DNA from: a virus
DNA length: 64,000 nucleotides
Direction: 5' to 3' (one strand)
Virus record (IMG/VR): IMGVR_UViG_3300028840_006907
Span: 96,001-160,000 of that record
Under the pieces are notes generated by a model. The model had not been told where the DNA came from and ran no database searches. It was given only the letters and a program-made list of their open reading frames with translations. Positions 40,842 to 63,624 of this stretch are shown in pieces; positions within the stretch are counted from its first letter, which is position 1, and the number at the start of each line of letters is the position of its first letter. Position numbers and translations under genes: made by a program.

Positions 40842-40868
40842 TAATTCATTAATATCGATTTAAATAGT

Positions 40869-41478: not shown

Positions 41479-41481
41479 GAT

Positions 41482-41985: not shown

Positions 41986-42164
41986 TTAAGTCTCTTTCTG
42001 TTTAAAGCAATCACGCCAATTATCACCGAAATGTTCTTGTGCAAATTTAATTGTAATAACTCTGACTGAATTACAATTATCACAAGGTCTATCCATACTA
42101 TCCTGCTCATGACCACATTCTGAACATACATAATTCATTTTATTGCCTCCCTCAGGTTTATATA

Positions 42165-42566: not shown

Positions 42567-42612
42567 GTAAATATTCCTCTTAAAATTGTGCCTTGAAAAC
42601 TTGCACCGTTTT

Positions 42613-45297: not shown

Positions 45298-45306
45298 TAA
45301 TTCTCC

Positions 45307-45804
45307 TTAATCTGATATAAGAATAAATTCACTTTCATGAACATTAAATTTGTCAGGATCCCATGTTGATACGATAATTTGGATTAATTCATTGGCTTTG
45401 TTTTTTGTCGCATCAATTCCTTGAAGACCGCATTTTACATTATTTTTAATATTACTAGCACCTGAAATTGTGACCATATCATCATTTTTGGAAATTGTAT
45501 TTAAGATACGGCCCATTGTATCCATGGAAAGAAGTTGTACATCTTTAAAGATAAAACGAAATAGAGAATATTTTTTTTCTTCGTAATGTCTTTTCTGTAT
45601 ATCAGGCCAACAAATATTATGGAATTTTTTAATTTCTTTTTTAATACTGTTTATGTCTTCAATCACTTCTTTCCATTCATTAGAGATGGTATAATTAGGG
45701 ATAGAAATTTCATGAGCCGTTTCAATTCCGGCTTCAATTAGTAAAGTCGTTCTTAATATTCTTGTTTTCTGATAATATTCGAGATAATTTTTTATTTGAC
45801 CCAT
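45307..45804 (-). CDS. hypothetical protein
   Basis: 165 aa ORF. Confidence 0.45.
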   Translation of the reverse strand: MGQIKNYLEYYQKTRILRTTLLIEAGIETAHEISIPNYTISNEWKEVIEDINSIKKEIKKFHNICWPDIQKRHYEEKKYSLFRFIFKDVQLLSMDTMGRILNTISKNDDMVTISGASNIKNNVKCGLQGIDATKNKANELIQIIVSTWDPDKFNVHESEFILISD

Positions 45805-46084
45805 TTTTTATTTCCTCTTCTTTTTTCTTAATATCAAATGAAATCATCCCTATTATATAAATTATAAAAGTTGCAGTAAAAATTATAATAGGAGGTAAGA
45901 TTTTAAACCCTAACCATAGGATAATACTGACAACATAAATAATAATAATAATAATCCATGTAATAATGAATCTGTTAGGTGGCTCATAAAAACATTTCAA
46001 TTCTTCATAAGTACTATTTTTCATATGGTAATTTTTTCTCCCACTGCTTTCCACAAATTTTACATTCCATAGTGACTTTACCAT
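45734..46084 (-). CDS. small membrane protein
   Basis: 116 aa; two hydrophobic helices. Confidence 0.35.
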   Translation of the reverse strand: MVKSLWNVKFVESSGRKNYHMKNSTYEELKCFYEPPNRFIITWIIIIIIYVVSIILWLGFKILPPIIIFTATFIIYIIGMISFDIKKKEEEIKNGSNKKLSRILSENKNIKNDFTN

Positions 46085-46382
46085 CTCTTTTGCTATTCGG
46101 GATTTCTCTACTTTCAGTATGTATCCAACGTATATCTTCAGAATCCCTGTCTTGTGTATAAGGGTAATCAGGTGTACATTTTTCTATAGTCTTTTTTAAC
46201 TTTTTCAGTCTTTCTCTAATTTTTTCTTGCCTCTTTCCGAATTCTGGGTCACATTTTTCCATGTGCTCACTCCAGTGGCCCCGTTTTATTCTTTTATGGC
46301 ATATTTGACAAGTAAAACAACATGCAATAGTGTGTTTGATGCTTTTATTGTCATGGCATTTACAGTGGCATTCTTCAGTCAA
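46014..46382 (-). CDS. Cys/His-rich zinc-binding protein
   Basis: 122 aa; CHCKCH, CCFTCQICH. Confidence 0.4.
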   Translation of the reverse strand: MTEECHCKCHDNKSIKHTIACCFTCQICHKRIKRGHWSEHMEKCDPEFGKRQEKIRERLKKLKKTIEKCTPDYPYTQDRDSEDIRWIHTESREIPNSKRDGKVTMECKICGKQWEKKLPYEK

Positions 46383-46401
46383 TTTTATATCTCCCCTTTA
46401 A

Positions 46402-47571
46402 TTATCCAAAATTAGACTTTCGGGTCAGAGGTATCTTTTTTGCAGTATCCGCAAATAGTTTTAACCCTTTCCATGAATCAATGTGGTAGGAAGTAATATA
46501 AGGTGCCTTAGGAGGTGGGCAACCACAATGCCCGTTAACTCTAACTGATCTTTTACCCTCTTTATTGGCATACATCTCCTTAGCATCTTTTAAAGGCATA
46601 TTCCCATCGACCATCCAGTAAGTCCATGCTCTTTCAAAGGTGAAACCCGGGAGTTCTCCAGAGATAGAGAAAGGAACTTCTCCGTCACCTTTTTTAGATA
46701 CAATATCAATACCGGCTAGATCAAGTTCAAGTCTGATGTAATGATCACAAGCTACCTCTCCAGCAAGATTCCCCATTGTATAACTTTCTCCATTATTGGC
46801 TAGATGCGTTTCGCATTTCTTTTTGATTTTTTTCTGATAACATTCTTCGTGGAAATATTTCCATTTTTCATAAAGAACTTCATCATTTTCTTCAATGACA
46901 TAATTTTCATCTATATTTTTTCTGCCATTTTTGTTTTTCTCATAACCATATTCTTTATCAATAGTCAGGTCAATGAGCCCCCTATTGAAAATAGTATGAT
47001 GAAATATATAGACAGTATTTTTGTCTGTGTTTCGAAGCTCTTTTTCAATTTCTGTTAAAGTTTTCCCGACGTATTTGGAGTTTATCTCAAATTGGTTAGA
47101 GTACCGTAATCTTTTGGTTTTATGGCAATACTCTACTTCCCATCCTTTATTACAGTGGGAACATTTTACATAAGCGGGAGGTAAATCATTGCCCATTGAG
47201 AATGAGATACTTATAGGATACGGCCTTTTGTTTTTTGCCCAATCAAAATCTTCTGCATCCATCTCTTCTCGGGTTAATATATTAGGGATATTTTCTTTAC
47301 TCCATCTTTCAATAAAATCCCAAAATTCTGTCTTTGTAAAAACTTTTCCTACAGGAAAATTGAAAATTTTCTCTACCGGAATAAAACCTGTCGCAGTACC
47401 TAAATTACCACACGTATCGAGATAATATCGACCTAAGACATAATATTCGTATAGTCTTTCATCACGTTTGTAACCTGCTTCGTGTCTTTCATTGATCATT
47501 TCCCAAAATGTGTTGTAAGATTTAAGTGACTTTTCGATTCCTTTAATTGTGTTATAGTCTTGTTTTTTCAT
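46402..47571 (-). CDS. hypothetical protein
   Basis: 389 aa ORF, no motif recognised. Confidence 0.5.
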   Translation of the reverse strand: MKKQDYNTIKGIEKSLKSYNTFWEMINERHEAGYKRDERLYEYYVLGRYYLDTCGNLGTATGFIPVEKIFNFPVGKVFTKTEFWDFIERWSKENIPNILTREEMDAEDFDWAKNKRPYPISISFSMGNDLPPAYVKCSHCNKGWEVEYCHKTKRLRYSNQFEINSKYVGKTLTEIEKELRNTDKNTVYIFHHTIFNRGLIDLTIDKEYGYEKNKNGRKNIDENYVIEENDEVLYEKWKYFHEECYQKKIKKKCETHLANNGESYTMGNLAGEVACDHYIRLELDLAGIDIVSKKGDGEVPFSISGELPGFTFERAWTYWMVDGNMPLKDAKEMYANKEGKRSVRVNGHCGCPPPKAPYITSYHIDSWKGLKLFADTAKKIPLTRKSNFG

Positions 47572-48599
47572 TTTACCACATGTTTAGAAGTGATTGTTTC
47601 TGCGAATTCTGGCCCCCTATCATAGTCATCAATCCATATGTTATCACAGTGCCGATTTCCTTTTTTCTCACTGCCGTACCATTGTGTCCTCCAATGTGCC
47701 TCAACTCTTATCTTATGATCCAGTTTCCATTTTCCGACACCTCCAGCTTGTTTGATACGAGTTATATCGTTATTCTTATCCTTTATATTTGAACCAACAA
47801 TAATAAATCTTTTGTTGGTAGCTTTTTCTTTCCTTTGTTCCAGTTTTCTTTTCTTGGTTTTATTTTTAATATTTTTTAATCTTGCATCAAAATCTAGTGG
47901 ATCATGGTTTTTTAAATCAGGTTTTTTGCTTGTGATATATAAAAGAGTGTTAAATACAAATTTTGCGAATTCTTCTAAATGATCAACATTTTTATATAAA
48001 TCATATTTATCTACTTCTTCCTTTTTTCTTTTTGTCTCATTTTCAATATAAATCTTTAATTGATCCTGAATTTTTCCAGGTTGCATTTCTATGTGGAAAT
48101 AAAAGGTGGTATCATTAAATGGTATGTCTGGTGTAGGTTTTAATAATGAACATGCCATTACTCTAATATGCTTTTCAGTATTGAAATCTCGAAGATAAAC
48201 GTAAAAACCATTTACAGGATGTTTACTTCCATCTATATCATTTATAGAAAAAAGACCTGGATCTATCTGTATAAAAATTTCTCTAAACGGGGATCTTAAG
48301 AAATAAGCATCAGTATTACAATTTGTTTGGGCTAGTCTTGCTGAAAGTTCTGGTGTTATATAGTATATCTGATCAGCATTATTTTTCATTTGATACATAT
48401 GAAAATATGTATTGTAAAAATGACTTATTCTTGCTGGTGAATCAAATTCAGTAAAAATAGAAGAAGTAGCATTACAAAATTGTTTGAATGTAGGATCAAA
48501 ACCAATATCGAGCATATTTTGTACTAGTATAGTTGGGGCTACTGTCTCTAGATGTTTAATAGCCAGTTCATAATGAGTTTTTGTGAAATACTTCTCCAT
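47568..48599 (-). CDS. hypothetical protein
   Basis: 343 aa ORF. Confidence 0.5.
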   Translation of the reverse strand: MEKYFTKTHYELAIKHLETVAPTILVQNMLDIGFDPTFKQFCNATSSIFTEFDSPARISHFYNTYFHMYQMKNNADQIYYITPELSARLAQTNCNTDAYFLRSPFREIFIQIDPGLFSINDIDGSKHPVNGFYVYLRDFNTEKHIRVMACSLLKPTPDIPFNDTTFYFHIEMQPGKIQDQLKIYIENETKRKKEEVDKYDLYKNVDHLEEFAKFVFNTLLYITSKKPDLKNHDPLDFDARLKNIKNKTKKRKLEQRKEKATNKRFIIVGSNIKDKNNDITRIKQAGGVGKWKLDHKIRVEAHWRTQWYGSEKKGNRHCDNIWIDDYDRGPEFAETITSKHVVK

Positions 48600-48763
48600 A
48601 ATAATTATACAAAGTTTATAAGGTGTTTCAATAAGAAAAAAATGATTTAATTTCTATTTAATCGTTTAATCAGCGATTATCTATTAATATAATTACCGTA
48701 TATAGAAAGTAATGTACTATAAAAATAAAGTGAAATACCATAAAAGCAAACAGAAATGATAAA

Positions 48764-49390
48764 ATGATTGAGACACTTTTTTATTTTTGCTATTATTCTT
48801 ATTTACTAGGTGACTTAAAAAGTACTGAGATGTACTATTCTCTATTGAGAAAAGAATTCAAAGAACATGGCCGAAAAGATTCATTAGAATCTCACCAATA
48901 CCGAGAATTGAAAAAAGTTAAAGATGCTCTTGATTCTGGAACCATATCCAAGAAGGAATGGGTAGCTGATAAAGTTATTGTACCCAAGATTAATTCAGAG
49001 ATAAAAATAAAACAAGATGAATTGGTCCGGAAGATCCATATGGAGGGGCTAGAACAGCTTAAAGTTATCTTGGATGATTGTGTGCAGATATATAATATTG
49101 AGCATCCTTGTGGCTCCTACGGGGCTGTAGATATGGTTTATAAAGGATTGAATACGATCTATCCGGTGGAAGTGAAACGAAGTCGGGGAGAACATGATTT
49201 AATTGGACAAATAGGAAAGTATGATTTATATCATCGTTTAAGGCTCCATTACAAACATTATAAACATGTTCAACCGGTAACGATATGTCATTCTTATCAG
49301 AAATTTGCTTTAAATGAGTTAAGACAAATGAGGGTTTTGACCTTAATTTATACCATAATTAATAAGAAAATTACTCTAAATGTAATATAA
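48764..49390 (+). CDS. hypothetical protein, possible PD-(D/E)xK nuclease fold
   Basis: 208 aa; AVDMVY...IYPVEVKRS resembles D...E.K motif. Confidence 0.4.
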   Translation: MIETLFYFCYYSYLLGDLKSTEMYYSLLRKEFKEHGRKDSLESHQYRELKKVKDALDSGTISKKEWVADKVIVPKINSEIKIKQDELVRKIHMEGLEQLKVILDDCVQIYNIEHPCGSYGAVDMVYKGLNTIYPVEVKRSRGEHDLIGQIGKYDLYHRLRLHYKHYKHVQPVTICHSYQKFALNELRQMRVLTLIYTIINKKITLNVI

Positions 49391-49402
49391 ATTACTTTTC
49401 TA

Positions 49403-49431
49403 TTGACTTTAAGATCATTTAGGGGTATATT
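49403..49431 (+). promoter_or_regulatory. sigma70-like promoter TTGACT-N17-TATATT
   Basis: Near-consensus -35/-10. Confidence 0.5.
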
Positions 49432-49487
49432 TAAATTAAATTACCTTTTGTTAGAAAACGATAATTTCTAAAGAGTGTGTCAAAGAA

Positions 49488-49565
49488 ATGCTGAGAATGA
49501 CTTTTAATAGTAACCCAAATCCACAACCAAAGAATTTGCTATTCGTTGGGGTTGTTATGATATAG
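49488..49565 (+). CDS. micro-ORF (25 aa) with NPNPQP motif
   Basis: MLRMTFNSNPNPQPKNLLFVGVVMI between promoter and terminator. Confidence 0.35.
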   Translation: MLRMTFNSNPNPQPKNLLFVGVVMI

Positions 49566-49592
49566 TCATAATCTCTACCTTGGATCAGGAAA

Positions 49593-49628
49593 AGCCCCGG
49601 CAAATGAGAGTTCTCCGGGGCTTTTCTT
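49593..49628 (+). terminator. rho-independent terminator / conserved hairpin (copy 1)
   Basis: GCCCCGG-caaatgagagttct-CCGGGGC then TTTT. Confidence 0.6.
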
Positions 49629-49646
49629 ATTTAATAATGTACTAAT

Positions 49647-49979
49647 ATGAAATTCGGTTCTATCACAGGTTTTTATAAGGGAAGGATAGAACTTATGAAT
49701 AAAGTATCTTGGGATGAGTATAATAGTATGGTAAATTCAGCAATTGATAGTGGGTATCCTTATGCTAGTGGTATTTTAATAGCTGAATTAGAATCCATAG
49801 CTAAGAATCTAACTCATCAAAATAAAAAGATAGAGGAAACATTAGTAAAAGAAGATAAGGATAAATTGGAAATTAGATTGGAATCAGTAAAGTCATGGAA
49901 TAAAGATACTATTGAGGGTATCGAAAGAGCTATTAAAAAAGCTGATGAAGCAGTAAAAAAATTAAGTGTTGACATTTAA
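49647..49979 (+). CDS. hypothetical protein
   Basis: 110 aa ORF. Confidence 0.45.
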   Translation: MKFGSITGFYKGRIELMNKVSWDEYNSMVNSAIDSGYPYASGILIAELESIAKNLTHQNKKIEETLVKEDKDKLEIRLESVKSWNKDTIEGIERAIKKADEAVKKLSVDI

Positions 49980-49997
49980 TACAATTTGTGGTATCTT
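49969..49997 (+). promoter_or_regulatory. possible promoter TTGACA-N17-TATCTT
   Basis: Consensus -35, weak -10. Confidence 0.35.
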
Positions 49998-50035
49998 TAA
50001 ATTTACATAGTTTTTATTATAAGGAAAGTTTTAAA

Positions 50036-50110
50036 ATGTTGTTTACAAAAATACTCAATAATAACCCGCAACCTAATCAACCAACGAATATTTATTTGTC
50101 GGGGGCCTGA
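50036..50110 (+). CDS. micro-ORF (24 aa) with NNNPQPNQP motif
   Basis: MLFTKILNNNPQPNQPTNIYLSGA; RBS AAGGAAAG. Confidence 0.35.
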   Translation: MLFTKILNNNPQPNQPTNIYLSGA

Positions 50111-50141
50111 GTATTGTCCAAAAGTTAAACTGAAATCACAA

Positions 50142-50178
50142 CCCCCGGCGAATGAGAGTTCACCGGGGGTTTTTATTT
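50142..50178 (+). terminator. rho-independent terminator / conserved hairpin (copy 2)
   Basis: CCCCCGG-cgaatgagagttca-CCGGGGG then TTTTTATTTTT. Confidence 0.6.
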
Positions 50179-50179
50179 T

Positions 50180-50255
50180 TGGGATGTCGCCTAACGGTAT
50201 GGCACCTGACTCTGGCTCAGGAATAATCAGGGTTCAAGTCCTTGCATCCCAGCCA
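50180..50255 (+). tRNA. tRNA-Gln (anticodon CTG)
   Basis: U1:A72 acceptor TGGGATG/CATCCCA, loop CTCTGGC, CCA. Confidence 0.8.
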
Positions 50256-50279
50256 ATTAACTTTAGGAAACAACAATAA

Positions 50280-50353
50280 CGGGGTGTGGCCTAGTCTGGT
50301 AAGGCGTCTGCTTCGGGAGTAGAAAATCGGAGGTTCAAATCCTCTCATCCCGA
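50280..50353 (+). tRNA. tRNA-Pro (anticodon CGG)
   Basis: C1:G72 acceptor CGGGGTG/CATCCCG, loop TTCGGGA. Confidence 0.8.
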
Positions 50354-50371
50354 TTAATAAAGGTAAAAATT

Positions 50372-50926
50372 ATGAGACCCATGATATATCCTAAAAAGAA
50401 TAGGAAAATAAAAAGACCACGAAGATCGAGACCATTAAAAAGATGTGTTCATATTGATGGAAAAGAATGGAGGTGGGAAACAACAGGTCACTGGGATAGT
50501 GATGCAGGTAGTTATGGTTGTTTAACTGATCAGAGCGTTAAAATACTTTCTCCTGATAATAAATTTTTTTCTATACGTGCTCATGAAGTAATGAAATGTG
50601 AACCGATAAGATGGGAATGTTGTGTTGGTGAAAAATTAATAACAGTTTTACCGGGGAAAGTAAAACAGTATATAATAGATAATTTAATTGATCATGATAT
50701 TTCAAGATCGTTAAGGAGACGCATTCATATAGATGGTAGAGAATGGGGTTGGCAGTTTAGTAAAGGAAATCCTGCATATCAGCTCTGTGGAGTATCTGTC
50801 CGTTCTCCTGATAATCGGTATTTATGGATTTATGCAAAAGAGTTAGGATACGAGATTAAACCATCAGTAATTAAAAAGTATATAATTGATAATTTATTAT
50901 ATCGGGGTATAGCGCAGCCTGGTTAG
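50372..50926 (+). CDS. hypothetical protein with internal duplicated ~75-aa module
   Basis: 184 aa; repeats HIDG(K/R)EW(R/G)W...SPDN(K/R)...YIIDNL; 3' end overlaps tRNA-Pro. Confidence 0.45.
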   Translation: MRPMIYPKKNRKIKRPRRSRPLKRCVHIDGKEWRWETTGHWDSDAGSYGCLTDQSVKILSPDNKFFSIRAHEVMKCEPIRWECCVGEKLITVLPGKVKQYIIDNLIDHDISRSLRRRIHIDGREWGWQFSKGNPAYQLCGVSVRSPDNRYLWIYAKELGYEIKPSVIKKYIIDNLLYRGIAQPG

Positions 50927-50979
50927 CGCGTCTGAATGGGGTTCAGAAGGTCGCCAGTTCAACTCTGGCTACCCCGACC
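50902..50979 (+). tRNA. tRNA-Pro (anticodon GGG)
   Basis: C1:G72 acceptor CGGGGTA/TACCCCG, loop ATGGGGT, CCA. Confidence 0.8.
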
Positions 50980-50998
50980 AAAGTTCTTTGAAAATTAT

Positions 50999-51274
50999 GG
51001 GGGTGTGGCAGAAGGGATATGCAGTCCTCAAAAAGTAGACAGGTCTGGGTAAAACCGGGTCATTACAGGAAGTTTGTATTCGCTACTGAAACGAAACAAA
51101 GGGAAGGTAGTGTAACGCTTACGGACTGGTGCTTGCAAGGGTTTACGGAAGACACTGACACGTTGCCTGGGATCTGGAGACAGCCCAGGAGGGTTTGTAA
51201 ATAACGGCAGGAAGTCCTTTTTCCCAATAGTGAGCTTTGGATGACTTATGCCGGTTCGAATCCGGTCACCTCCA
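50999..51274 (+). other. tRNA-like ends (acceptor GGGGGTG/CACCTCC, T-arm GCCGGTTCGAATCCGGT) enclosing ~200-nt GC-rich insert; unresolved structured RNA or intron-containing tRNA
   Basis: Acceptor complementarity and canonical T-arm at 3' end; no normal anticodon arm found by hand; GC content far above surroundings. Confidence 0.4.
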
Positions 51275-51360
51275 TCAAAATAAATTAAATAGATAGATAG
51301 GCAAACTGGCAAGCCATTTGGTTGTAATAGAAAATGTGTAGCAAGATCATAAAGACATAC

Positions 51361-51632
51361 TGGAGTGTAGCTCAGTGGCAGAGCGGGTGGCTGTCTTGGT
51401 TGGCAGCTCTTATAGGAAACTGTAAGATGAAAACTCGGTGAATTCAGGGAAACCTAAGTCTTAAACAGATATGGCAATCCTGAGCGAAGCCTTGAGAAAG
51501 GAACGTGCAGAGACTTATAGCGCCGAGCACCTAAGGTGAAAACTATGGTGATGAGATAGTCCAGGCCCTTGGGAAATCAGGGGAATTACTGTAACCACTT
51601 GGTCGGGGGTTCAAATCCCTCCACTCCAGCCA
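51361..51632 (+). tRNA. tRNA-Asn (anticodon GTT) interrupted by a group I intron
   Basis: Exon 1 51361-51394 (TGGAGTG...GGTGG-CTGT), exon 2 51592-51632 (TAA-CCACT...CACTCCAGCCA); spliced loop CTGTTAA; U1:A72 as in bacterial tRNA-Asn. Confidence 0.7.
51395..51591 (+). ncRNA. group I intron (~197 nt) in tRNA-Asn anticodon loop
   Basis: 5' exon ends in U; IGS GGCAG pairs with exon CUGU; R-like GCAGAGACTTATAGCG and S-like GAGATAGTCC elements; terminal G before exon 2. Confidence 0.65.
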
Positions 51633-51683
51633 ATTTTAAAGGGTCCTAGAGGAATTTACTTTAAAGAAAAGGAGAAAAATTAA

Positions 51684-51884
51684 ATGAGTAAAGATGAGAA
51701 ACCTGATTATTCGAAAGATTTCGATACATGTCCTTGGTGTAATAAAATACCAAAAGTATCGAAACATTTCAGATATGATGAATGGCAACTGATCCATCGT
51801 TGTGATAAATTACTTACTGTAATTAGTATGGATTGGACTGAATTAGATAGTCTTAAAAATCGATGGAATCGACCTAAGAAATGA
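51684..51884 (+). CDS. hypothetical protein
   Basis: 66 aa ORF; CPWCNK. Confidence 0.4.
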   Translation: MSKDEKPDYSKDFDTCPWCNKIPKVSKHFRYDEWQLIHRCDKLLTVISMDWTELDSLKNRWNRPKK

Positions 51885-52156
51885 CAGAATGTACTATATG
51901 TGAAAGAGAAACTCCTGAGAAATATGTGGAGAAACATCACTTGACTCCTTGTAGCCGAGGAGGAAAGGATAAGGAGAAAACACTTACTTGTATTGATTGC
52001 GGAGATCAGGTACATCGATTATTTACGAATAAAGAATTGGAGAGAGACTATTATACACTCGAAAAATTATTAGCTCATCCTAAAATCCAGAAATGGAAGA
52101 AATGGGTTAAGAATAAGAGATTCGGGATATGTATGAAACGAAAAAAGAAGAGATAA
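51881..52156 (+). CDS. small HNH-type endonuclease-like protein
   Basis: 91 aa; CTICE...EKHHLTPCSRGG...CIDCGDQVH. Confidence 0.5.
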   Translation: MTECTICERETPEKYVEKHHLTPCSRGGKDKEKTLTCIDCGDQVHRLFTNKELERDYYTLEKLLAHPKIQKWKKWVKNKRFGICMKRKKKR

Positions 52157-52163
52157 TATATAA

Positions 52164-52239
52164 CGGGCGGTCGCCTAATCTGGTATGGCACCACATTTGG
52201 GATGTGGAATAACTGGAAGTTCAAATCTTCTCCGCCCGA
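52164..52239 (+). tRNA. tRNA-Pro (anticodon TGG)
   Basis: C1:G72 acceptor CGGGCGG/CCGCCCG, loop TTTGGGA. Confidence 0.8.
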
Positions 52240-52253
52240 TATATTTTTAAATC

Positions 52254-52329
52254 AATAAGTTACTGGGATGTAGTTCAGTTGAAAGAACACCGGAATTTGG
52301 ATCCGGGGGTCGCAGGTTTGAGCCCTGCC
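52254..52329 (+). tRNA. tRNA-Gln (anticodon TTG)
   Basis: U1:A72 acceptor TGGGATG/CATCCCA, loop ATTTGGA, CCA. Confidence 0.8.
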
Positions 52330-52537
52330 ATCCCAGCCATTTAATTTTTTTATCAATATATTTACCACAAAGACGTATATTATTTATACAACTTAAAAAT
52401 AGGAATAATATATGACATAGATAAAAATACCACCCTAGATCCTCAAAATATTCAAACCTCCTTAAAACACGGTTATTATACCAAATGGTGTTATACCAAA
52501 CAGTACAATATTCATTCATTTAAACAGGAGAATAACC

Positions 52538-52837
52538 GTGATCAAAAATAGAAAATTTTTAAAATTTGAATTAAAATTAGAAGCTCAAAAATTACGAAAA
52601 ATCAAGACTGATATTAAAACCAAGCAGAGAGCTGGCCAGTATGCCGGTCATGAACAGTCCGAATTATTGACTCTTAAATGGAATTACCGCCATCGATTTA
52701 TTGCTTATTGTATGATGCGGGGTAGAGAATATAAGCAAATCGAAAGAACATGTAGAGTTGAACCAAATCATGACTGGGTAAAGGAGATCATCAATGAATA
52801 CTCCCCGCAAAAAGAAACTATACGTGCTTCTGCGTAA
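52538..52837 (+). CDS. hypothetical protein
   Basis: 99 aa ORF. Confidence 0.4.
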   Translation: MIKNRKFLKFELKLEAQKLRKIKTDIKTKQRAGQYAGHEQSELLTLKWNYRHRFIAYCMMRGREYKQIERTCRVEPNHDWVKEIINEYSPQKETIRASA

Positions 52838-53108
52838 AGATTTGGATGAAACTTATCGATGTGTTCAAGGAGGCCATGCTATTGCTGAGTATTCTCTAAA
52901 GGATTACCAGTCATTTAAAGAATGGGCAAATGGAACTCTGATTTATCTTGGAGTACCTGATTTAAAAGCTTTGGAATTATGGTTGCTCAAATTGGAACGG
53001 AAAAATATTTTTCATATCAGGTTTCATGAACCCGATCTTGGGAATGAGTTAACATCGGTAGCTTGTATAAATACAGGGAAAATTTTTAAAAGTCTTCCTC
53101 TTGCTTAA
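52794..53108 (+). CDS. possible PTH2-like peptidyl-tRNA hydrolase
   Basis: 104 aa; KLYVLLRKDLDE...GGHAIAEY weakly resembles PTH2 family. Confidence 0.35.
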   Translation: MNTPRKKKLYVLLRKDLDETYRCVQGGHAIAEYSLKDYQSFKEWANGTLIYLGVPDLKALELWLLKLERKNIFHIRFHEPDLGNELTSVACINTGKIFKSLPLA

Positions 53109-53115
53109 AGTTACA

Positions 53116-53189
53116 GCGCCTGAGGCTCTGAGGTGAGCAACTTGGACTCTAAATCCAAGTTTTTCAGGGTTCGACTCCCTACAGGCGCA
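53116..53189 (+). tRNA. suppressor tRNA (anticodon CTA, reads UAG)
   Basis: Hand fold: acceptor GCGCCTG/CAGGCGC, anticodon stem TTGGA/TCCAA, loop CTCTAAA (U33, CUA, A37), T-loop TTCGACT. Confidence 0.65.
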
Positions 53190-55726: not shown

Positions 55727-56029
55727 TTATAATATTTCTTTCACTTTGTTTTTTAATGTATCACATTTAGGATCAAATTCTGGCTCTTTTCCATCGTTCC
55801 ATGGTGACTTAATCCAGAAAAAGCATGAGTCAACACGACCCACTCTGATGTCTCCATTCATGTAATCCCTTTGTCCTTTAAAATAAGCCCTCTCAATGGC
55901 TTTAAAGTCGGTAGTGGCCTCTATACTAATGTATTGTATTTTATTGCTCTCAGGGGCAAATAACCGCCATGAGATAAGGAATAGTAAGTAAGCTCCTATT
56001 AAAATTATAAAACTATTAATTTTAAACAT
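55727..56029 (-). CDS. membrane-anchored hypothetical protein
   Basis: 100 aa; N-terminal hydrophobic helix. Confidence 0.4.
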   Translation of the reverse strand: MFKINSFIILIGAYLLFLISWRLFAPESNKIQYISIEATTDFKAIERAYFKGQRDYMNGDIRVGRVDSCFFWIKSPWNDGKEPEFDPKCDTLKNKVKEIL

Positions 56030-56897
56030 ATAAATTGTTCTCTTGTATAATACCAGCTATTAATGTGAGAAAAGGAGACTCCCTAAGATACTTTTCCCGA
56101 TCCTCCTTTAATTCTTTTCTGATATCTGTAGAGGATATCTTTGGTATTTTATTACCAGCATCAAAAAACTTATGTGGTTCTTTCATATACCAATTCACAT
56201 TTGGATCGCGCTTTTCTCCTTGTCTAGATACTACAATGAATGGTATCAATTTTTCAAGGTGTTCATAGTTAACCCATTTATCAAATGTATTGGCATTATC
56301 AAGTCCAATGACATAATTGAATCGGTATTCGTTTTTGGCAAAATCCTCTTCCATAAATTTATTAAGGAAATAATATGTCTCTCCAGCTAGTTCGTGAACA
56401 ATTTCATAATCGCATACTTTCATTCTCTTATCTACCTGTACATATTCTCGACACATGGCTAGCCGTAGTGATGCAGGAGCCATTTCTTTTCCATATAAAT
56501 GTCTGTAGCAGGGGATGTACCAAACTTCATCGAATAACCCTGCTTCATCGAGTAAGAATTTTCCTATAGCAAGATGGCCAGGATGGATGGGATCAAAAGC
56601 ACCCCCGATGAGCGCAACTGATACTTTCCTGCCAAGTTTACGGTATAAAGATCGGCTATTAATTTTGGTGATGTTCATTTCAACCAATTCATTAAAATCA
56701 TAACCGGCTTCATTAATCCATTGTATCAGTGTACCAAGTAGATCGCTCGTTTCATCTTTTAATCCCGTCATGGTCCTGGCTCTTGTCAATTCAAATGCTT
56801 CTTTAAGGATATCATTCAATCTGATATCAGTAGGAGTATTTCCAAAAGCTTCTGAATACGTTTTATTGATATTATTTAATAAATCTGATAAATTCAT
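56022..56897 (-). CDS. nadD: nicotinate-nucleotide adenylyltransferase (NadD/NMNAT-like) with N-terminal MazG-like extension
   Basis: 291 aa; GGAFDPIHPGHL (HxGH nucleotidyltransferase) and ISSTDIR; N-terminal ~90 aa EAFELTRARTMTGLKDETSDLLGTLIQWINEAG resembles MazG/HisE-type NTP-PPase. Confidence 0.75.
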   Translation of the reverse strand: MNLSDLLNNINKTYSEAFGNTPTDIRLNDILKEAFELTRARTMTGLKDETSDLLGTLIQWINEAGYDFNELVEMNITKINSRSLYRKLGRKVSVALIGGAFDPIHPGHLAIGKFLLDEAGLFDEVWYIPCYRHLYGKEMAPASLRLAMCREYVQVDKRMKVCDYEIVHELAGETYYFLNKFMEEDFAKNEYRFNYVIGLDNANTFDKWVNYEHLEKLIPFIVVSRQGEKRDPNVNWYMKEPHKFFDAGNKIPKISSTDIRKELKEDREKYLRESPFLTLIAGIIQENNLYV

Positions 56898-57078
56898 TTT
56901 TCAATTTCTTTTTAGGTAAATTTTTTATTATACAATCAATACAAATATCTTTACTTTTCCACTGCCCATTTTCTATAGTTCTTAATACCACCCTATAACT
57001 TTTATCTCTAATAAAGAGCCTGCTATCGTCAATATCCATTTGTTTTTTGCATATATCACATATTGTAATTTTAGCCAT
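56872..57078 (-). CDS. small zinc-ribbon protein
   Basis: 68 aa; CDICKK...CIDCI. Confidence 0.4.
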   Translation of the reverse strand: MAKITICDICKKQMDIDDSRLFIRDKSYRVVLRTIENGQWKSKDICIDCIIKNLPKKKLKNEFIRFIK

Positions 57079-57095: not shown

Positions 57096-57887
57096 TTATA
57101 TATCTAAATGGCAAATACGAGGCATTTCCATTTTATGAGCATTCTTTTCATGTCGTTCTAGATATAATTCAAGAACTTTCATTTTTCTTTTTTCTATTGT
57201 TAACATAGATTTCATCGCTTCAAGTCCTTTGATAGTTTTTAAACCACCTAATTTTTTACAAAAATCCATAGCCCATTCCAATTCAGAATATGTAGCTCCA
57301 ATCTGATCTTCATCAGTTCTGCCATCTTCCCATAATCCATCAGTAGGTTTTGCTGTTAAAATATCTGAGTTCACTCCAAGATAGGCTCCCATACCATATA
57401 CCTCAGATTTGACTAGCTCTCCTATTGGACTTATATCAACACCACCATCACCGAATTTTGTAAAGAAACCAATTCCGAAATCTTCAACCATATTCCCAGT
57501 ACCAACAACATAATAATTATGGGTATTTGCGATAGCATAAAGAGCTACCATTCGAAGACGGGATCTGGTATTAACCATGGCAAATTCATTGTAATAATTA
57601 CTATGATTAAAATTATTAAAGACAACTGAAAGATCTTCCGTATGACTGGTAACATTGGTATAGTCTTTTTTTAATTTTTCAACATGTGCTTCTGCTCTGG
57701 GAAGAATATCTTGATTTATTGGCATATGGGCACATATAACAGGTTTATAAGTTCTGGCACATAAATTTGATACAACTGCTGAGTCAATTCCACCTGAAAC
57801 TCCAACTACACAGCCATCTACATGGGATTCCTTCATGTCTCTAATAATCCAATTTACAATATGATCTGAGACTTTTTTATAGTCCAA
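57096..57887 (-). CDS. nadE: NAD+ synthetase (NH3-dependent type)
   Basis: 263 aa; PP-loop GVSGGIDSAV. Confidence 0.8.
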   Translation of the reverse strand: MDYKKVSDHIVNWIIRDMKESHVDGCVVGVSGGIDSAVVSNLCARTYKPVICAHMPINQDILPRAEAHVEKLKKDYTNVTSHTEDLSVVFNNFNHSNYYNEFAMVNTRSRLRMVALYAIANTHNYYVVGTGNMVEDFGIGFFTKFGDGGVDISPIGELVKSEVYGMGAYLGVNSDILTAKPTDGLWEDGRTDEDQIGATYSELEWAMDFCKKLGGLKTIKGLEAMKSMLTIEKRKMKVLELYLERHEKNAHKMEMPRICHLDI

Positions 57888-57899: not shown

Positions 57900-59624
57900 T
57901 TAATTCATGGCAATTGAGTATATTTTTTTATTGTCAACAAATAACACTTTCATATGTTCATGGTATAATCGCATAGATACATTAATCGGTGTATTCGTAA
58001 TATCCTTACTTCCTTTATTATTTTTAAATAGAGACATTTTATCATTATCGACAGAGATGCACATTCCAGTAGGTAATGTAATAAAATTAACTGGATGGTA
58101 ATCAATCATATCTTCCTGTTTAATATCATAGCTAGTATGGGTTTTATCAAAACAAATTGTATATTTAAAATAACTTCCCTGTTTTTCTGTGACCACTATA
58201 CAGATTCCTTTATCATACCGGGCATCAATGATTCTTTGGCCGTCCAATTCTTTTACATAAGTATTAATACATTTCCCTCTTTCGAAAGGAATAGCTAATC
58301 GTATCTTTGTGAAATCATCCTGTACAATAACACCTCGGAAAGACTTATATGATTTGCTTATTCTACATACAGTTTTAGTCGTATGAATAACTCTCTGGAA
58401 TTTTTCAAAATGATTCTCTATCAATCTTCCATTATTAATGGTGTAAATATACCCATTATACCCCATTATGTCTTCAGCTTTGATGTCGGATATTGATTTA
58501 TTATTTAAATCAAAGAACTCAGCTTTTAAATTCTTGAAATAAACTATTAAGGGATCCGCTCCATAAGCTTCACACATGCCTACTATGGTTGATTTTAAAG
58601 GTTTATGGAACTTAACCACTTTATCTTTATTCTGGTCATATATGGCTTTAGAAGTTATCACAAAGCGTTTATCATTAAAGAAGAAGATATTCCGAATCGG
58701 TTCATTTACTTCGAATACTTTTTCTACTATGAAATCACCTCTACTAGTTATAGTTCTGGCAACTGCTGCTACAACCACGACCTCGTCCGGTAATGGCGGG
58801 ATGGATCTCTCATTATTTTTAAATTCTGATACATACCATTCAAAATGTTTTTTAGGGATCACAGAATAATCTTGGCACATGGCCGGTAATGGCTTTGCTC
58901 CTTTATCAAAATTTGAGACTCCATCATCCATCCTTTTAATCCATTGTTTCGGTTTATAATCGATATGTCTACTTTTGTAAGGGTGAATACCCAGATACAT
59001 TTGATAAGTTACGACACCCCAGGAGAACCAGTCAGAGTACTCAGTAAATTGAGCATTCTTAACCTGTCGATCTCGAACACTATCCATAAGAGCATCTGCT
59101 GGGAAGCTTTTTGTTTTCCAGGCATCCACATCAATGTGATAAACGGTCTTTAAATCACCGCTAAGAAGGAAATTCATCTCATTATAATCAACTACTAGGA
59201 AGCCATTTTTATGGATGTATTGTAGGGCTTTCTGCATTTTAAGAACTAGGTCAGCTATATCTGTTGGACTTAAATGTTTATTGTCTCTGAAAGTCTTAGT
59301 AAATACTTGGCAGAGAAATTCAACTCCATCAACATATCTCATTGTAAACCCAATGGGTGTGTGGTTCCTCACTTCATATAAAGGTTCTATGGGTGACAGG
59401 ATATCATCTCGTTTTAATTCGGTCAATTCGTGTATTTTTGCTTCTGGTATCATATTTTTAGTATCATGATAAATTTTATATGCAATCCCATTTAGATAAA
59501 AAACTGTTCCAAAACCACCAGAAGCTTTATAATTATCATCAGTCAAAGTAACAATTTCTTTTGTTGTCTGAACTTTGAATGACTTCTTTATTATCGGGTT
59601 CATTTTTGTTTTCGGTAAAATCAT
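57900..59624 (-). CDS. protein-kinase-like (Ser/Thr kinase fold) protein with C-terminal extension
   Basis: 574 aa; Gly-rich loop SGGFGTVF, AYKIY Lys, catalytic-loop-like VVDYNEMNFLL, DVDAW. Confidence 0.6.
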   Translation of the reverse strand: MILPKTKMNPIIKKSFKVQTTKEIVTLTDDNYKASGGFGTVFYLNGIAYKIYHDTKNMIPEAKIHELTELKRDDILSPIEPLYEVRNHTPIGFTMRYVDGVEFLCQVFTKTFRDNKHLSPTDIADLVLKMQKALQYIHKNGFLVVDYNEMNFLLSGDLKTVYHIDVDAWKTKSFPADALMDSVRDRQVKNAQFTEYSDWFSWGVVTYQMYLGIHPYKSRHIDYKPKQWIKRMDDGVSNFDKGAKPLPAMCQDYSVIPKKHFEWYVSEFKNNERSIPPLPDEVVVVAAVARTITSRGDFIVEKVFEVNEPIRNIFFFNDKRFVITSKAIYDQNKDKVVKFHKPLKSTIVGMCEAYGADPLIVYFKNLKAEFFDLNNKSISDIKAEDIMGYNGYIYTINNGRLIENHFEKFQRVIHTTKTVCRISKSYKSFRGVIVQDDFTKIRLAIPFERGKCINTYVKELDGQRIIDARYDKGICIVVTEKQGSYFKYTICFDKTHTSYDIKQEDMIDYHPVNFITLPTGMCISVDNDKMSLFKNNKGSKDITNTPINVSMRLYHEHMKVLFVDNKKIYSIAMN

Positions 59625-60487
59625 TAATATTCCTCATTTAAATAAATAGTAGCAGTACCAACGTCATCATAATGATGCCAATTATGTTTTTTAACTTTCT
59701 TACCAAAAAAGATCATGCGCTTTTTTACAAATTCACCGGTAGTGTTTTTAAATCCAATAAATTCGGGTATTGTAATATCTAATCCTATATCTTTTTTATA
59801 ACTATCTCTGTAGGTTGATATACCATCTGTACATATTGTAACAGATAAGAGTTTATCCTTCATAATATTGGAAATTTCTTCGGAATAGATTGTATCAAAA
59901 GGTAATGAAGATTCAAGAGGATTTTCTAGCCCCTTTTCTCCTGACAAAGTAATAATTTCCCGAAAGCATTGAGGATTATCTTCACCTTTAATAGCACAAT
60001 TTTTTAAATAGACTGTTCTATCACTTATTAGATAAAATGGGGCATTTAAGGAATAATCTATTTTCATTATTAGCTGATAATTACCGCCATCTTCTTTTCT
60101 ATAATTAGCTGTAATGACACCATCACCCCATGCAAATACCAATACTCTTGAAGACAATCTTATAGTTATTAATAATGTGGCTTCCAAAGCCTTAGGAGTA
60201 ATGGGGTATATCTTTCTTATTTCATCAGCTCTTTTGTGAATGCCGTTTCCGAGATAAAATGAGAGTTCTTTCAGATTTAATCGTTCGAATAATCCAGTTT
60301 GGATACAAAATTCAATATTATATTTAGCAACATGACATAATATTTGAGCACCTACTTCAGAATGATCCGCAGAAGAACATCCATCTGCAACGATGCCATA
60401 CTCAATTCCTTTAAAAGAGCCACTTAATGCATAGTCTTGACAGACTAAATGAGTGCTTCCTTTTTCATAATATGAGTCACAGCTCAC
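59624..60487 (-). CDS. PP2C-family (PPM) protein phosphatase-like
   Basis: 287 aa; GIVADGCSS, FAWGDGV, ICTDGIS motifs. Confidence 0.6.
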   Translation of the reverse strand: MSCDSYYEKGSTHLVCQDYALSGSFKGIEYGIVADGCSSADHSEVGAQILCHVAKYNIEFCIQTGLFERLNLKELSFYLGNGIHKRADEIRKIYPITPKALEATLLITIRLSSRVLVFAWGDGVITANYRKEDGGNYQLIMKIDYSLNAPFYLISDRTVYLKNCAIKGEDNPQCFREIITLSGEKGLENPLESSLPFDTIYSEEISNIMKDKLLSVTICTDGISTYRDSYKKDIGLDITIPEFIGFKNTTGEFVKKRMIFFGKKVKKHNWHHYDDVGTATIYLNEEY

Positions 60488-60546: not shown

Positions 60547-61314
60547 CTAGTTAAATTTGAAATCTTTAATTGGTTGTGAAGGTTGTCCGGTGCCGAGGGC
60601 ATCTGACTGTGAGCTAACACTCTGACTCATAAACTGGGCTAGTTTAGCTAATTTTGATTCAGAAACATCACCCATTGATATATATTCATCAAGTCCAGCT
60701 TCTTCTTTGAAATCCGTAAGTAATTTCTTTAAATCTTTTCTACCATCATTAACACCAATAAGAATGGTACGAACTGATTCCATCGCTTCATCTTCATCAT
60801 TCATACTGTCTAATGTTTCTTTTATCATTTGTGGAGTAACACCGAATTCGGGGCAATTATCTTCACCATCAGTAATTATGAAAACCATTCCATTAGCATT
60901 TACGATCCTTTCAGAATTATAGAGCTTATTTATATAATCTCTCATGACGTCCAAACCACAAAGAGTCGCTTGAAAAAGATTTGTAGCATTCGCTGGAAAG
61001 ATCACATCGTCGTAATTATCTAGTTCAATATCACTCAGAAGCATCCATCCATGAATTTCCTGGATACCTCCATTATTAAAAGCGATAACACGTAATAAAA
61101 GATTCAAAGCTCGTGGGGAGCCTTTACATGACCCTACACATGCTTTTATCATTTTTTCCAGACCTGTTTTAAACCCTTTCACTGAATAGGTTTTATCAAC
61201 GATTATAGTGACTGCTGTATATTCTGTAGCTCCAAGTCTATCAACTTTAACTTTTGTATAATCGAATTTATGGAGAGATACATCGGAATCACTTACATTC
61301 ATAAACTTAGGCAT
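60547..61314 (-). CDS. vWA-domain protein (TerY-like)
   Basis: 255 aa; VFIITDGEDN and degenerate MIDAS IIVDKTYS. Confidence 0.55.
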   Translation of the reverse strand: MPKFMNVSDSDVSLHKFDYTKVKVDRLGATEYTAVTIIVDKTYSVKGFKTGLEKMIKACVGSCKGSPRALNLLLRVIAFNNGGIQEIHGWMLLSDIELDNYDDVIFPANATNLFQATLCGLDVMRDYINKLYNSERIVNANGMVFIITDGEDNCPEFGVTPQMIKETLDSMNDEDEAMESVRTILIGVNDGRKDLKKLLTDFKEEAGLDEYISMGDVSESKLAKLAQFMSQSVSSQSDALGTGQPSQPIKDFKFN

Positions 61315-61326: not shown

Positions 61327-62154
61327 CTAGAAAAAGTCCACTGTTGTAGCAACCTGCATACCATAATCATCTGCAGTATACTTGTTAATAAAGTCTTCAC
61401 CATTTTGCTCACATCCAGGTACACTTGAAGTAGCATCTTTGAGTAAAACGAATTTTTTAACTTGGTCGGCACCTAAATATTCAAAGATATCTCTGAATGT
61501 AAAGGAATAGCAGTGTGAAAGAGCTTCACCAGCTCCAAGAATTATATCATATTCCTTGATTACATTGATAAAATCTTCGTTTAATCTGGTTCCTTCATCC
61601 TCTGGGTCAATCACGTCAGCCACTAATGCTGAATAGTGCTCAGTGAAAGGATTACTCCCTTTGGTGGTACGGGGAGCAATACCGTAATAAGTGGCTTCCC
61701 ATTCAGAGACCGCATTGAGAAATTCAGGCTCTAACATTTGTCCATCACTTCCGATAATACAATGTTCAGGCCATATCATTAATTGATATCTGTTATTAGC
61801 CTTTAATTGTTTCAAGTAGTCAACATAACGCTCTTGAAAGCCTGGATTGAAAGCACGGTATTCTCCATCTAAGACCATTTCTAAAGTTAAGTACGTAGGT
61901 ACAGTATTCCCTTTGTGAAGGAAAATAGGTGTGGGGTGGTTTCCCTCTCTGTCAATCCAAGATCGGCTGTGAGCCACGTGGAGCTTATAATGTGAGTCCA
62001 TCGTGATTTGGATTTCATCAATATCACCCCCGAATTTTCGAATCATTTTTGAAAGTCTTGCCATGTCTTCAACGGCACCAGGAACAGTGAGAGTTCCCCT
62101 TGTAAAGTCTTTTTGAGGGTCAATTACCACAAGGCACACTTTAGGTTTTTCCAT
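61327..62154 (-). CDS. pncA: nicotinamidase (isochorismatase-family)
   Basis: 275 aa; VVIDPQKDF, WPEHCIIGSDGQ, RTTKG, catalytic-Cys context GAGEALSHCY. Confidence 0.8.
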   Translation of the reverse strand: MEKPKVCLVVIDPQKDFTRGTLTVPGAVEDMARLSKMIRKFGGDIDEIQITMDSHYKLHVAHSRSWIDREGNHPTPIFLHKGNTVPTYLTLEMVLDGEYRAFNPGFQERYVDYLKQLKANNRYQLMIWPEHCIIGSDGQMLEPEFLNAVSEWEATYYGIAPRTTKGSNPFTEHYSALVADVIDPEDEGTRLNEDFINVIKEYDIILGAGEALSHCYSFTFRDIFEYLGADQVKKFVLLKDATSSVPGCEQNGEDFINKYTADDYGMQVATTVDFF

Positions 62155-62201: not shown

Positions 62202-62444
62202 TTAAAGCAACCCTTTTATATCAGCCCTTTCAATATCAGTTCTGTTAAAAAAGTTCTTATTTCCTTTTTTTCTAGGTTCTGGTAATACCCCGCATTTTAT
62301 ACGACGGTATATAGTTTGTTTGGATATATTATATTCAGTACAAATATCTCTCAAACTAATTTCATCTCTATGATGTTTGTAAAGTATTTTAGCTACTTCT
62401 TCTGCTATAGCTTTTGCTAATTTTTTAATATCTGCATCATCCAT
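62202..62444 (-). CDS. small HTH DNA-binding protein (AlpA/MerR-like)
   Basis: 80 aa; ISKQTIYRRIKCGVLPEP. Confidence 0.5.
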   Translation of the reverse strand: MDDADIKKLAKAIAEEVAKILYKHHRDEISLRDICTEYNISKQTIYRRIKCGVLPEPRKKGNKNFFNRTDIERADIKGLL

Positions 62445-62451: not shown

Positions 62452-63624
62452 TTATATCATTAAATCTTTTTTACAATGTACAATCATATCTTTATTACCA
62501 GTGTTCTTTCCTTCGTCATCTGATAACTTGACTGTGTCAATCCATCTGCCATTTATCATACAGGCTATCATTTTAATAACAATATTCAATGGTATGACAT
62601 CTACGTCATTTGTAAACCAGGTTCCAATTCCATATGCATCTCTGATCAAATTGATGCAAGCTTTATGGATAGATTTCACTTTATCTATACTGTTAATAGC
62701 ATCAGAGAATACCAATGTTTTAAGCATCGGATCAATTCTTAATTTTTGGTATTTACTTACTGATTTAGTAATGAAATCAAAAGGTGAACCACTATCTTGC
62801 CGGAGACCATCAAAAAGTTTCGCAAAAAATGTATTGAATGTTTTTAGGAATACATCAGTAGTAAATGTATCTGGAAGAGCAATTCCAAGATCTCCTTGAA
62901 ATATATCAGACCATATTTTCAGAGCCATCTCATTAGCCATACGAAATCCATACATAGCTGCATGGAATTGATACCATTCATGAGCTTTTGTTCCTATGGG
63001 AGTTAAATTGTATTTCTTTGCTAGATAAACATTACTAGGTCCAGAGAAACAACTACCTAGATATTGCTTTGCATCACGAACTACTTCATCATGATTCTTT
63101 AGAGAGTATCTTCTACGAGTACCAAATTCAGCGATGGGTACTCCGATTTCTTTAAGAGCCATAAATTTCAGACGATTTCTTTCTTTACGTTCCTTACGAA
63201 TCATCTTTGTCTTACCAGTTTTCTCAAAATAAAGTTGACTGATAGTAGCCATCAAAGGTACTTCCCAAAGAATCTTTCGGTACCAGGGTCCTATATACTT
63301 ACAATGAAAATTAGATCCTTCTTGTGTTAATATTATCTCATCTGGGTTATACCGGTACCCACTAAGAAGATCGATATAGGCAGGATTTAAATAATAACAT
63401 TTTTCTTTAAGAAAGTCTATATCATCTTTGCTTAATGTAAAACCACGAAATGTGTCTATAATTCTCCTTAATTCATCGGCAAAGCCATCTGGAAACTCTC
63501 TACCATCACGGTTTATAAATTGGTACATAGCGAGAGCATTGGGGTATTTCTGACATGCCCCACACTGCATAGTGAATTTATACACATCATTATCGAGTAT
63601 ACCAGCTACGTACTCATTCTCCAT
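62452..63624 (-). CDS. pncB: nicotinate phosphoribosyltransferase
   Basis: 390 aa; N-terminal LDNDVYKFTM signature of NAPRTase family. Confidence 0.8.
   Translation of the reverse strand: MENEYVAGILDNDVYKFTMQCGACQKYPNALAMYQFINRDGREFPDGFADELRRIIDTFRGFTLSKDDIDFLKEKCYYLNPAYIDLLSGYRYNPDEIILTQEGSNFHCKYIGPWYRKILWEVPLMATISQLYFEKTGKTKMIRKERKERNRLKFMALKEIGVPIAEFGTRRRYSLKNHDEVVRDAKQYLGSCFSGPSNVYLAKKYNLTPIGTKAHEWYQFHAAMYGFRMANEMALKIWSDIFQGDLGIALPDTFTTDVFLKTFNTFFAKLFDGLRQDSGSPFDFITKSVSKYQKLRIDPMLKTLVFSDAINSIDKVKSIHKACINLIRDAYGIGTWFTNDVDVIPLNIVIKMIACMINGRWIDTVKLSDDEGKNTGNKDMIVHCKKDLMI

Follow-up and report, generated by a model that had tools for sequence, protein, structure and literature searches.

A MazG-type domain joined to a NadD-type adenylyltransferase in huge phages, encoded within a predicted NAD+ salvage cluster

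Introduction

Why would a huge phage join a domain resembling nucleoside triphosphate (NTP) pyrophosphohydrolases to an enzyme of NAD+ synthesis? The question is raised by a single gene in IMG/VR virus record IMGVR_UViG_3300028840_006907, of which positions 96,001 to 160,000 were analyzed; this whole stretch of 64,000 nucleotides is referred to here as the window, and its genes are numbered from its first nucleotide. The gene (56022..56897, minus strand) is predicted to encode a protein of 291 amino acids (aa) in which a MazG-type domain precedes a nicotinate-nucleotide adenylyltransferase (NadD) domain. Much of the conflict between bacteria and phages turns on NAD+, and several NAD+-rebuilding pathways of phages have lately been shown to defeat NAD+-depleting immunity. 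Phage NAD+ synthesis, including clusters of pncB, nadD and nadE, is already published and the pathway-level idea is not new, while the MazG-NadD architecture is apparently undescribed, with no mention found in the literature searched, which consisted of open-access text only. The locus adds this conserved architecture, which is found almost only in huge phages and is publicly labelled 'NadD', as well as what appears to be a full deamidated PncA-PncB-NadD-NadE route starting at nicotinamide, the product of defence NADases.

A MazG-type domain fused to NadD

The N-terminal domain (aa 1-88; 56634..56897, minus strand) is predicted to form a four-helix bundle. The AlphaFold2 (AF2) model of the full-length protein has a predicted local distance difference test score (pLDDT) of 94.8 and a predicted template modelling score (pTM) of 0.83, with helices at aa 3-18, 23-39, 43-64 and 68-81 (pLDDT >90) followed directly by a Rossmann-type domain, the two domains being joined without a flexible linker; modelled alone, the N-terminal domain reaches a pLDDT of 91.6. 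When this domain was compared to the PDB with Foldseek, the top ~40 matches were all all-alpha NTP pyrophosphohydrolases (best query-normalized template modelling score, TMq, 0.72-0.78), including YpjD, SSO3215, Escherichia coli MazG, HisE, DCTPP1 and the MazG of cyanophage S-2L. A profile built from 38 N-terminal domains found E. coli MazG (3cra, 2.7e-7) and a MazG-related protein of Thermotoga maritima (2yxh, 3.4e-4) in the PDB, together with Bacillus subtilis YpjD and Sulfolobus solfataricus SSO3215. An earlier note on this DNA, made from its letters and open reading frames (ORFs), had described a MazG-like N-terminal region of ~90 aa and named structure prediction as the test that could refute it; the fold in the AF2 and Foldseek results, the intact EXXE-X12-EXXD motif and the profile match to E. 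coli MazG all bear that description out.

The metal-binding motif reads E33-x-x-E36 ... E49-x-x-D52 (EXXE-X12-EXXD; 56742..56801, minus strand), and its conservation was assessed in a homologue search over 5.8 billion proteins, which returned 398 homologues, nearly all of ~290-310 aa; the top 120 were used for the conservation counts. Nearly all of these 120 are 280-320 aa long and 44-74% identical to the window protein, and most carry precomputed PF03819 and PF01467 annotations. Of the 120, 113 retain E33, 107 E36, 117 E49, 117 D52, 119 E63, 118 K78 and 119 R82; all seven residues are identical together in 106 of 118 homologues whose overall identity is only ~50%. When hidden Markov models (HMMs) are aligned, E33/E36/E49/D52/K78/R82 coincide with EE..E, E..D and K..R in the C-terminal domain of E. 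coli MazG, residues that we take to be catalytic in that domain. Additional residues (F18, R26, E63 and Y85) are invariant in a family-specific manner, and the interdomain junction is tight and conserved (Y85, G89, R90, K91). Mean pairwise identity over the 120 homologues is 51% for the N-terminal 92 aa versus 56% for the NadD part. Among 93 aligned full-length homologues, Pfam MazG is matched by 81 at E<=1e-3 (best 3.5e-9) and CTP_transf_like by all 93. Taken together, the sequence comparisons and the modelled fold establish the N-terminal domain as a predicted MazG-type all-alpha NTP pyrophosphohydrolase module in which the metal- and phosphate-binding residues are all kept.

The remainder of the protein (aa 92-291; 56025..56624, minus strand) is a NadD-type nicotinate-nucleotide adenylyltransferase domain according to Pfam (CTP_transf_like, aa 96-261, E=1.4e-17), NCBIfam (best model TIGR00482) and Foldseek, where the top 50 matches were all NadD enzymes, led by that of Bacillus anthracis (3e27, 1.1e-14, target-normalized template modelling score, TMt, 0.85). 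Both signature motifs of the family are present, namely the HxGH motif H105-P-G-H108 (56574..56585, minus strand) and the SSTxxR motif of NadD and nicotinamide mononucleotide adenylyltransferase (NMNAT) enzymes, S255-S-T-D-I-R260 (56118..56135, minus strand). Across the family H108 and S256 are invariant, position 105 is H or T, and S255, T257 and R260 are conserved in at least 90% of members; (H/T)xGH and SxTxxR occur in 107 of the 120 homologues. A Nudix match to the fusion protein was looked for in Pfam and NCBIfam, and none was found. These motifs and structural matches identify the C-terminal domain as a predicted complete, divergent NadD-type adenylyltransferase.

Both domains lie in one ORF running from ATG to TAA, as the earlier note had described. 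A stop codon stands one codon 5' of the ATG, the stop-to-stop ORF opening 3 nt earlier; M1 is therefore the sole start that covers the N-terminal region, and a longer reading is impossible. The note had also allowed that the true start might lie further downstream, an option that is excluded by the conservation of the N-terminal region in frame across hundreds of homologues. The ATG lacks a strong Shine-Dalgarno sequence and overlaps by 26 nt an upstream 68-aa ORF (56872..57078, minus strand), which contains two CxxC pairs, is zinc-ribbon-like and is also called as a gene on the identical public contig; a family assignment was sought for it in Pfam among others, and none was obtained. The overlap suggests translational coupling of the two genes. 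An identical fusion protein is encoded on JGI contig Ga0180437_10000019 (388,651 bp), part of which is identical to the window, and on a 469,617-bp contig, and independent assemblies of JGI, Logan and ENA data each contain the protein.

Distribution of the fusion

The fusion is widespread in metagenomic huge phages and rare elsewhere. In IMG/VR it was found in frame at 33 loci, on contigs of up to 675 kb, while ~35 further viral NadD genes lacked the N-terminal domain and none of these had a MazG of this type within 10 kb. A tblastn search of GenBank phages returned a full-length match only in a 735-kb metagenomic phage (LR756501/LR756503, 41.8% identity), with no cultured phage among the full-length matches; megablast of the fusion region against GenBank phages returned nothing, PHROGs contained no family for the fusion protein, and BFVD held no viral structure covering both domains, its best matches being to NadD only (TMq <=0.49). 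In public annotations, family members are named simply 'nicotinate-nucleotide adenylyltransferase'. When 185,579 species were scanned, each represented by one genome, 401 NadD relatives were found, of which 397 lacked the N-terminal domain. Two of the four carriers (L003 and L004) lie on short or phage-like contigs in taxonomically unrelated metagenome-assembled genomes (MAGs) and look like mis-binned phage contigs. Judged from these sequence searches, the fusion is conserved in many huge phages. The earlier description of the fusion as unusual consequently holds for cellular NadD (four of 401 relatives) but not for huge phages, where it is common. The window itself, with 34 tRNA genes, a transfer-messenger RNA (tmRNA), a CTA-anticodon tRNA and 34% G+C, is typical of a huge phage.

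Two observations on individual loci may be added. In three related IMG/VR contigs (L098, L099 and L100, ~9908..10875), a frameshift at profile position 54 divides the MazG domain between two overlapping ORFs, for which sequencing error, a pseudogene and programmed frameshifting are candidate explanations. On a 400-kb JGI contig encoding homologue P0037 (sample 3300050046), the fusion gene is not in an NAD cluster, and the ~10 kb around it encode an NAD-dependent DNA ligase, an RNA ligase, a WGR-domain protein and an NT5C nucleotidase.

Scanned with HMMER, 1.84 billion representative proteins yielded no more than 282 clusters of the N-terminal domain subfamily, including some stand-alone forms of ~100 aa. 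In every multi-domain member examined, the domain stood N-terminal to NadD or a NadD-like nucleotidyltransferase, sometimes with NAD kinase after it. Long variants are present on two Planctomycete MAG contigs, L005 (5983..8268) and L006 (4924..7278, a stop-to-stop span with the start not determined), whose proteins of 761-785 aa contain the MazG-like domain, NadD, a second divergent NadD-like segment and NAD kinase. The L005 neighbours look cellular (Nudix, NAMPT, phosphoribosyl pyrophosphate synthetase, M48 peptidases and alcohol dehydrogenase), and the L005/L006 protein is a predicted cellular multi-enzyme NAD(P) fusion. Two proteins of 556-558 aa (P0183 and P0212) were considered as direct fusions of MazG to NAD kinase and rejected, since a divergent NadD-like nucleotidyltransferase segment ('FSSMFDPPSRYH...') intervenes, so they do not represent an independent fusion to a second enzyme class.

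NAD+ gene cluster around the fusion

Upstream of the fusion gene and on the same strand lie, in order, the CxxC ORF and genes for NadE, a kinase, a PP2C phosphatase, a YegL-like protein, PncA, a helix-turn-helix (HTH) protein and PncB, which places PncB, NadE and PncA within 7 kb of the fusion. NadE (57096..57887, minus strand, 263 aa) is a single-domain, presumably NH3-dependent NAD+ synthetase (Pfam NAD_synthase 2.6e-45; TIGR00552 2.3e-50; phrog_11189 2.7e-67), and PncB (62452..63624, minus strand, 390 aa) is a nicotinate phosphoribosyltransferase (Pfam NAPRTase 9.9e-50, NAPRTase_N 1.7e-29). The 275-aa product of 61327..62154 (minus strand) has no direct Pfam match and is assigned as a divergent nicotinamidase, PncA, from homologues that bear that name, some with PF00857, and from a profile that finds yeast Pnc1 (8.4e-11) and Mycobacterium tuberculosis PncA (1.2e-8) in the PDB; D12, K165 and C215 are invariant in its homologues. 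Between PncA and PncB, an 80-aa HTH protein (62202..62444, minus strand, coordinates mapped from L001) is recognized by weak HTH_11/HTH_17 matches and by the gene table of the identical public contig. Divergent PncA was also observed inside PncB/NadE/NadD clusters of two other huge phages (L131 and L137).

From general pathway knowledge, PncA, PncB, NadD and NadE would together constitute a complete route from nicotinamide via nicotinate, nicotinate mononucleotide (NaMN) and nicotinate adenine dinucleotide (NaAD) to NAD+. NadD enzymes convert NaMN and ATP to NaAD and pyrophosphate (PPi). NaMN is the likely substrate of the fused NadD from its context, because the cluster encodes both the enzyme that produces NaMN (PncB) and the one that uses NaAD (NadE).

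The NAD genes are interrupted between PncA and NadE by three genes for a 255-aa YegL/TerY-like von Willebrand factor A (vWA) protein (60547..61314, minus strand), a 287-aa PP2C phosphatase (59624..60487, minus strand; Pfam PP2C_2 4.5e-16) and a 574-aa Ser/Thr protein kinase (57900..59624, minus strand; Pfam Pkinase 5.6e-9). The 255-aa protein has no direct Pfam match and is assigned through its homologues, which JGI calls 'uncharacterized protein YegL' and one of which carries PF00092. A vWA protein, a PP2C phosphatase and a kinase make up the described TerY-P triad, which the window genes match (PMC11090510). Components of the triad are also found next to NadD or PncA at further loci of huge phages (L107, L122, L124, L139/140, L145 and L146).

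Comparison with known systems

Compared to bacterial NadD (B. anthracis 3e27 and B. subtilis 1kaq), the phage domain shares the fold (TMt 0.85-0.87), the HxGH and SSTxxR motifs and a catalytic domain of ~190 aa, but it is only 22-26% identical, scores slightly under the TIGR00482 cut-off and carries the additional N-terminal MazG domain of ~88 aa. Similarly, the N-terminal domain has the four-helix bundle, EXXE-X12-EXXD motif and K..R residues of MazG enzymes (3cra, 2yxh, YpjD 2gta, SSO3215 1vmg and S-2L 7ody), whereas it belongs to a small, distinct, nucleotidyltransferase-fused subfamily with 16-19% identity to the solved structures.

The closest parallel in design is provided by NadM-Nudix and by NatV of the phage KVP40 type, in which a pyrophosphohydrolase is also fused to an NAD adenylyltransferase in a salvage context, and which likewise occur in jumbo phages (PMC7824862). 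In those proteins, however, the hydrolase is Nudix and the transferase NadM-type, while here the hydrolase is MazG and N-terminal and the transferase NadD-type; the pathway partner of NatV is NadV, while those in the window are PncA, PncB and NadE. MazG-NadD is thus predicted to be an analogue of this group and not a member of it. Preiss-Handler clusters of pncB, nadD and nadE have been described in 'NAD-jumbo phages' (Microbiome 2024, PMC11662467), and with PncB, NadD and NadE in one phage genome the window falls within that definition. The nadD gene of the 735-kb phage, the sole full-length GenBank phage match of the fusion protein, is listed in that paper, in which the word MazG has 0 occurrences (PMC11662467). 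The window differs from the published clusters in its MazG-fused NadD, its additional divergent PncA and its inserted vWA/PP2C/kinase triad.

Among anti-defence proteins, the phage MazG-like protein Atd1 hydrolyses guanosine tetra- and pentaphosphate, (p)ppGpp, and protects against TIR NADase/TIR-STING (bioRxiv 10.1101/2022.06.09.495361). Compared by description only, Atd1 resembles the window protein in tying a phage MazG catalytic domain to NAD+-depleting (TIR) immunity, but it is a stand-alone protein, in contrast to the NadD-fused MazG. NARP1, NARP2 and NARP3 resemble the window pathway in that phage-encoded enzymes rebuild NAD+ from breakdown products or precursors; they do so with Adps/Namat, NadV/NMNAT and PnuC/NadR, respectively, and none has a PncA-PncB-NadD-NadE route or a MazG domain.

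Possible roles of the MazG domain

The locus is probably best explained by a two-domain MazG-NadD enzyme of huge phages acting in NAD+ salvage, with a MazG half that is most likely catalytically active. Conservation of the catalytic residues favours an active pyrophosphohydrolase, which would cleave a nucleoside polyphosphate between the alpha and beta phosphates; by analogy with single-domain MazG proteins, the domain probably also dimerizes the fusion protein. NadD would adenylate the NaMN supplied by PncB and NadE would amidate the product, allowing the phage to sustain or rebuild its NAD+ pool during infection, including after the action of NAD+-cleaving defence effectors. A role in countering NAD+-depleting immunity is plausible given that nicotinamide is the product released by NADase effectors. 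With low confidence, the preferred role of the MazG half is removal of a stress or non-cognate nucleotide that would undermine the rebuilding of NAD+. One candidate substrate is (p)ppGpp, which phage Atd1 hydrolyses downstream of TIR NADase; the other is non-ATP, non-canonical or damaged NTPs that would compete at the adenylyltransferase. In this way the fusion might hypothetically couple nucleotide or alarmone hydrolysis to NAD synthesis, as the earlier note had proposed, and Atd1 provides a published precedent for the idea. Activity in the MazG half would mean that removing a specific nucleotide, be it an alarmone or a competing NTP, matters for NAD+ rebuilding.

Several points weigh against parts of this explanation. 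The window protein itself matches Pfam MazG (PF03819) at aa 32-83 with only 13 bits (E=0.13), below the gathering threshold of 22 bits, so that its membership rests on transitive homology and fold; the residue conservation, the Pfam matches of homologues, the profile search of the PDB and the AF2/Foldseek fold indicate that the match is not due to chance. The NadD domain also does not reach the equivalog cut-off of TIGR00482 (E=3.4e-29, 102.2 bits versus 112.45). At the other fusion-bearing loci, PncB (six loci) or NadE (three loci) occurs within 10 kb, and most have neither. The Planctomycete long variants have lost the first EXXE (AQANS, TQTTS, RQMSK), which means that the domain can persist without that motif and favours a structural or regulatory role. 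PPi, the product of MazG, is also a product of NadD, and there is no obvious kinetic gain from channelling. A tblastn search that used the C-terminal domain of E. coli MazG as the query did not retrieve Atd1 (Pectobacterium phage PcCB7V). Finally, both substrate candidates are guesses, and the counter-defence role, plausible as it is, is drawn from genomic context and the literature.

The main rival is that the MazG domain is non-catalytic and either dimerizes the enzyme or senses ATP/NTP allosterically to regulate NadD. The Planctomycete MazG-NadD-nucleotidyltransferase-NAD kinase proteins, which retain the domain with the first EXXE gone, are what would be expected of such a module, as are the tight, conserved junction with NadD and the pTM value, which suggests a fixed arrangement of the domains. 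Single-domain MazG proteins are, moreover, obligate oligomers. Among 118 phage-family sequences, however, 106 are identical at all seven positions with a putative role in catalysis or phosphate binding, which would be hard to account for in a mere scaffold, and this rival is considered unlikely, although worth keeping in view. If the MazG half does prove inactive, it would constitute a new regulatory or oligomerization module of an enzyme that is both essential and a drug target.

A bolder version of the preferred explanation, which is at present doubtful, is that the fusion is a dual counter-defence enzyme. Its NadD half would use the nicotinamide that NADase effectors (TIR, SIR2, SEFIR) set free to rebuild NAD+, while its MazG half would destroy a nucleotide signal for death or dormancy, such as (p)ppGpp or another triphosphate-type alarm or defence nucleotide. 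Two separate activities against abortive infection would then be hard-wired in one huge-phage polypeptide, and the embedded vWA/PP2C/kinase triad might switch the pathway on.

A weaker rival regards MazG as the counterpart of the Nudix domain of NadM-Nudix/NatV, cleaving a pyrophosphate of the dinucleotide or ADP-ribose (ADPR) type, in NAD(H), NaAD or ADPR, and thereby regulating the pool or recycling breakdown products. Fusions of a pyrophosphatase to NMNAT are known repeatedly from NAD salvage, and jumbo phages have them too (NMNAT-Nudix, PMC7824862); a review lists E. coli MazG among enzymes to which NAD+ hydrolase activity is ascribed (PMC12143786), a point of little weight. The multi-domain members of the N-terminal domain subfamily that were examined all place it beside NAD nucleotidyltransferases. 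The source cited by the review reportedly characterizes E. coli MazG as an NTP pyrophosphohydrolase. Characterized enzymes of the MazG superfamily use nucleoside triphosphates or phosphoribosyl-ATP and coordinate the terminal polyphosphate, and the Planctomycete cluster with the MazG fusion has a separate Nudix gene, both of which make this rival improbable.

Least probable by far, and effectively already refuted, is an artefact in which an assembly or frame error merged two genes or the true start lies downstream and the helical region is untranslated: the absence of a strong Shine-Dalgarno sequence, the 26-nt overlap and the three loci split by a frameshift could be cited for it, but the same protein was recovered from independent JGI, Logan and ENA assemblies, in hundreds of homologues the two domains share a reading frame and the junction is conserved, and the AF2 model is confident along its whole length.

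Stand-alone MazG and other features of the window

The separate MazG-like ORF reported in the earlier note (38035..38376, plus strand, 113 aa) is real and scores above the Pfam threshold for MazG (35.5 bits, E=1.2e-8). Its motif reads EVGE...ELGD, its nearest solved relatives are Bacillus MazG 5ie9 and YpjD, and it is flanked by tRNA-Leu (37645..37727) and tRNA-Arg (38564..38642); tblastn against GenBank phages gave no match. Duplication of the fused domain was considered as its origin and rejected, as the two align with an hhalign probability of just 56% over 48 columns. It therefore appears to be a second, independent MazG of a different subfamily and not a paralogue of the fused domain.

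The 34 tRNA genes lie within 2426..53189 and the tmRNA at 15873..16282. The CTA-anticodon tRNA (53116..53189), a possible amber suppressor, prompted consideration of general TAG recoding, which was rejected: 8 of 53 long ORFs terminate at TAG with lengths in line with those of their homologues, and any TAG recoding in the window is not general. Because the fusion gene ends in TAA, recoding cannot affect its gene call. A 343-aa protein (47568..48599, minus strand), for which our Pfam scan at E<=0.01 gave nothing, is listed as AcrVA2-like (PF26125) in the public gene table of the identical contig.

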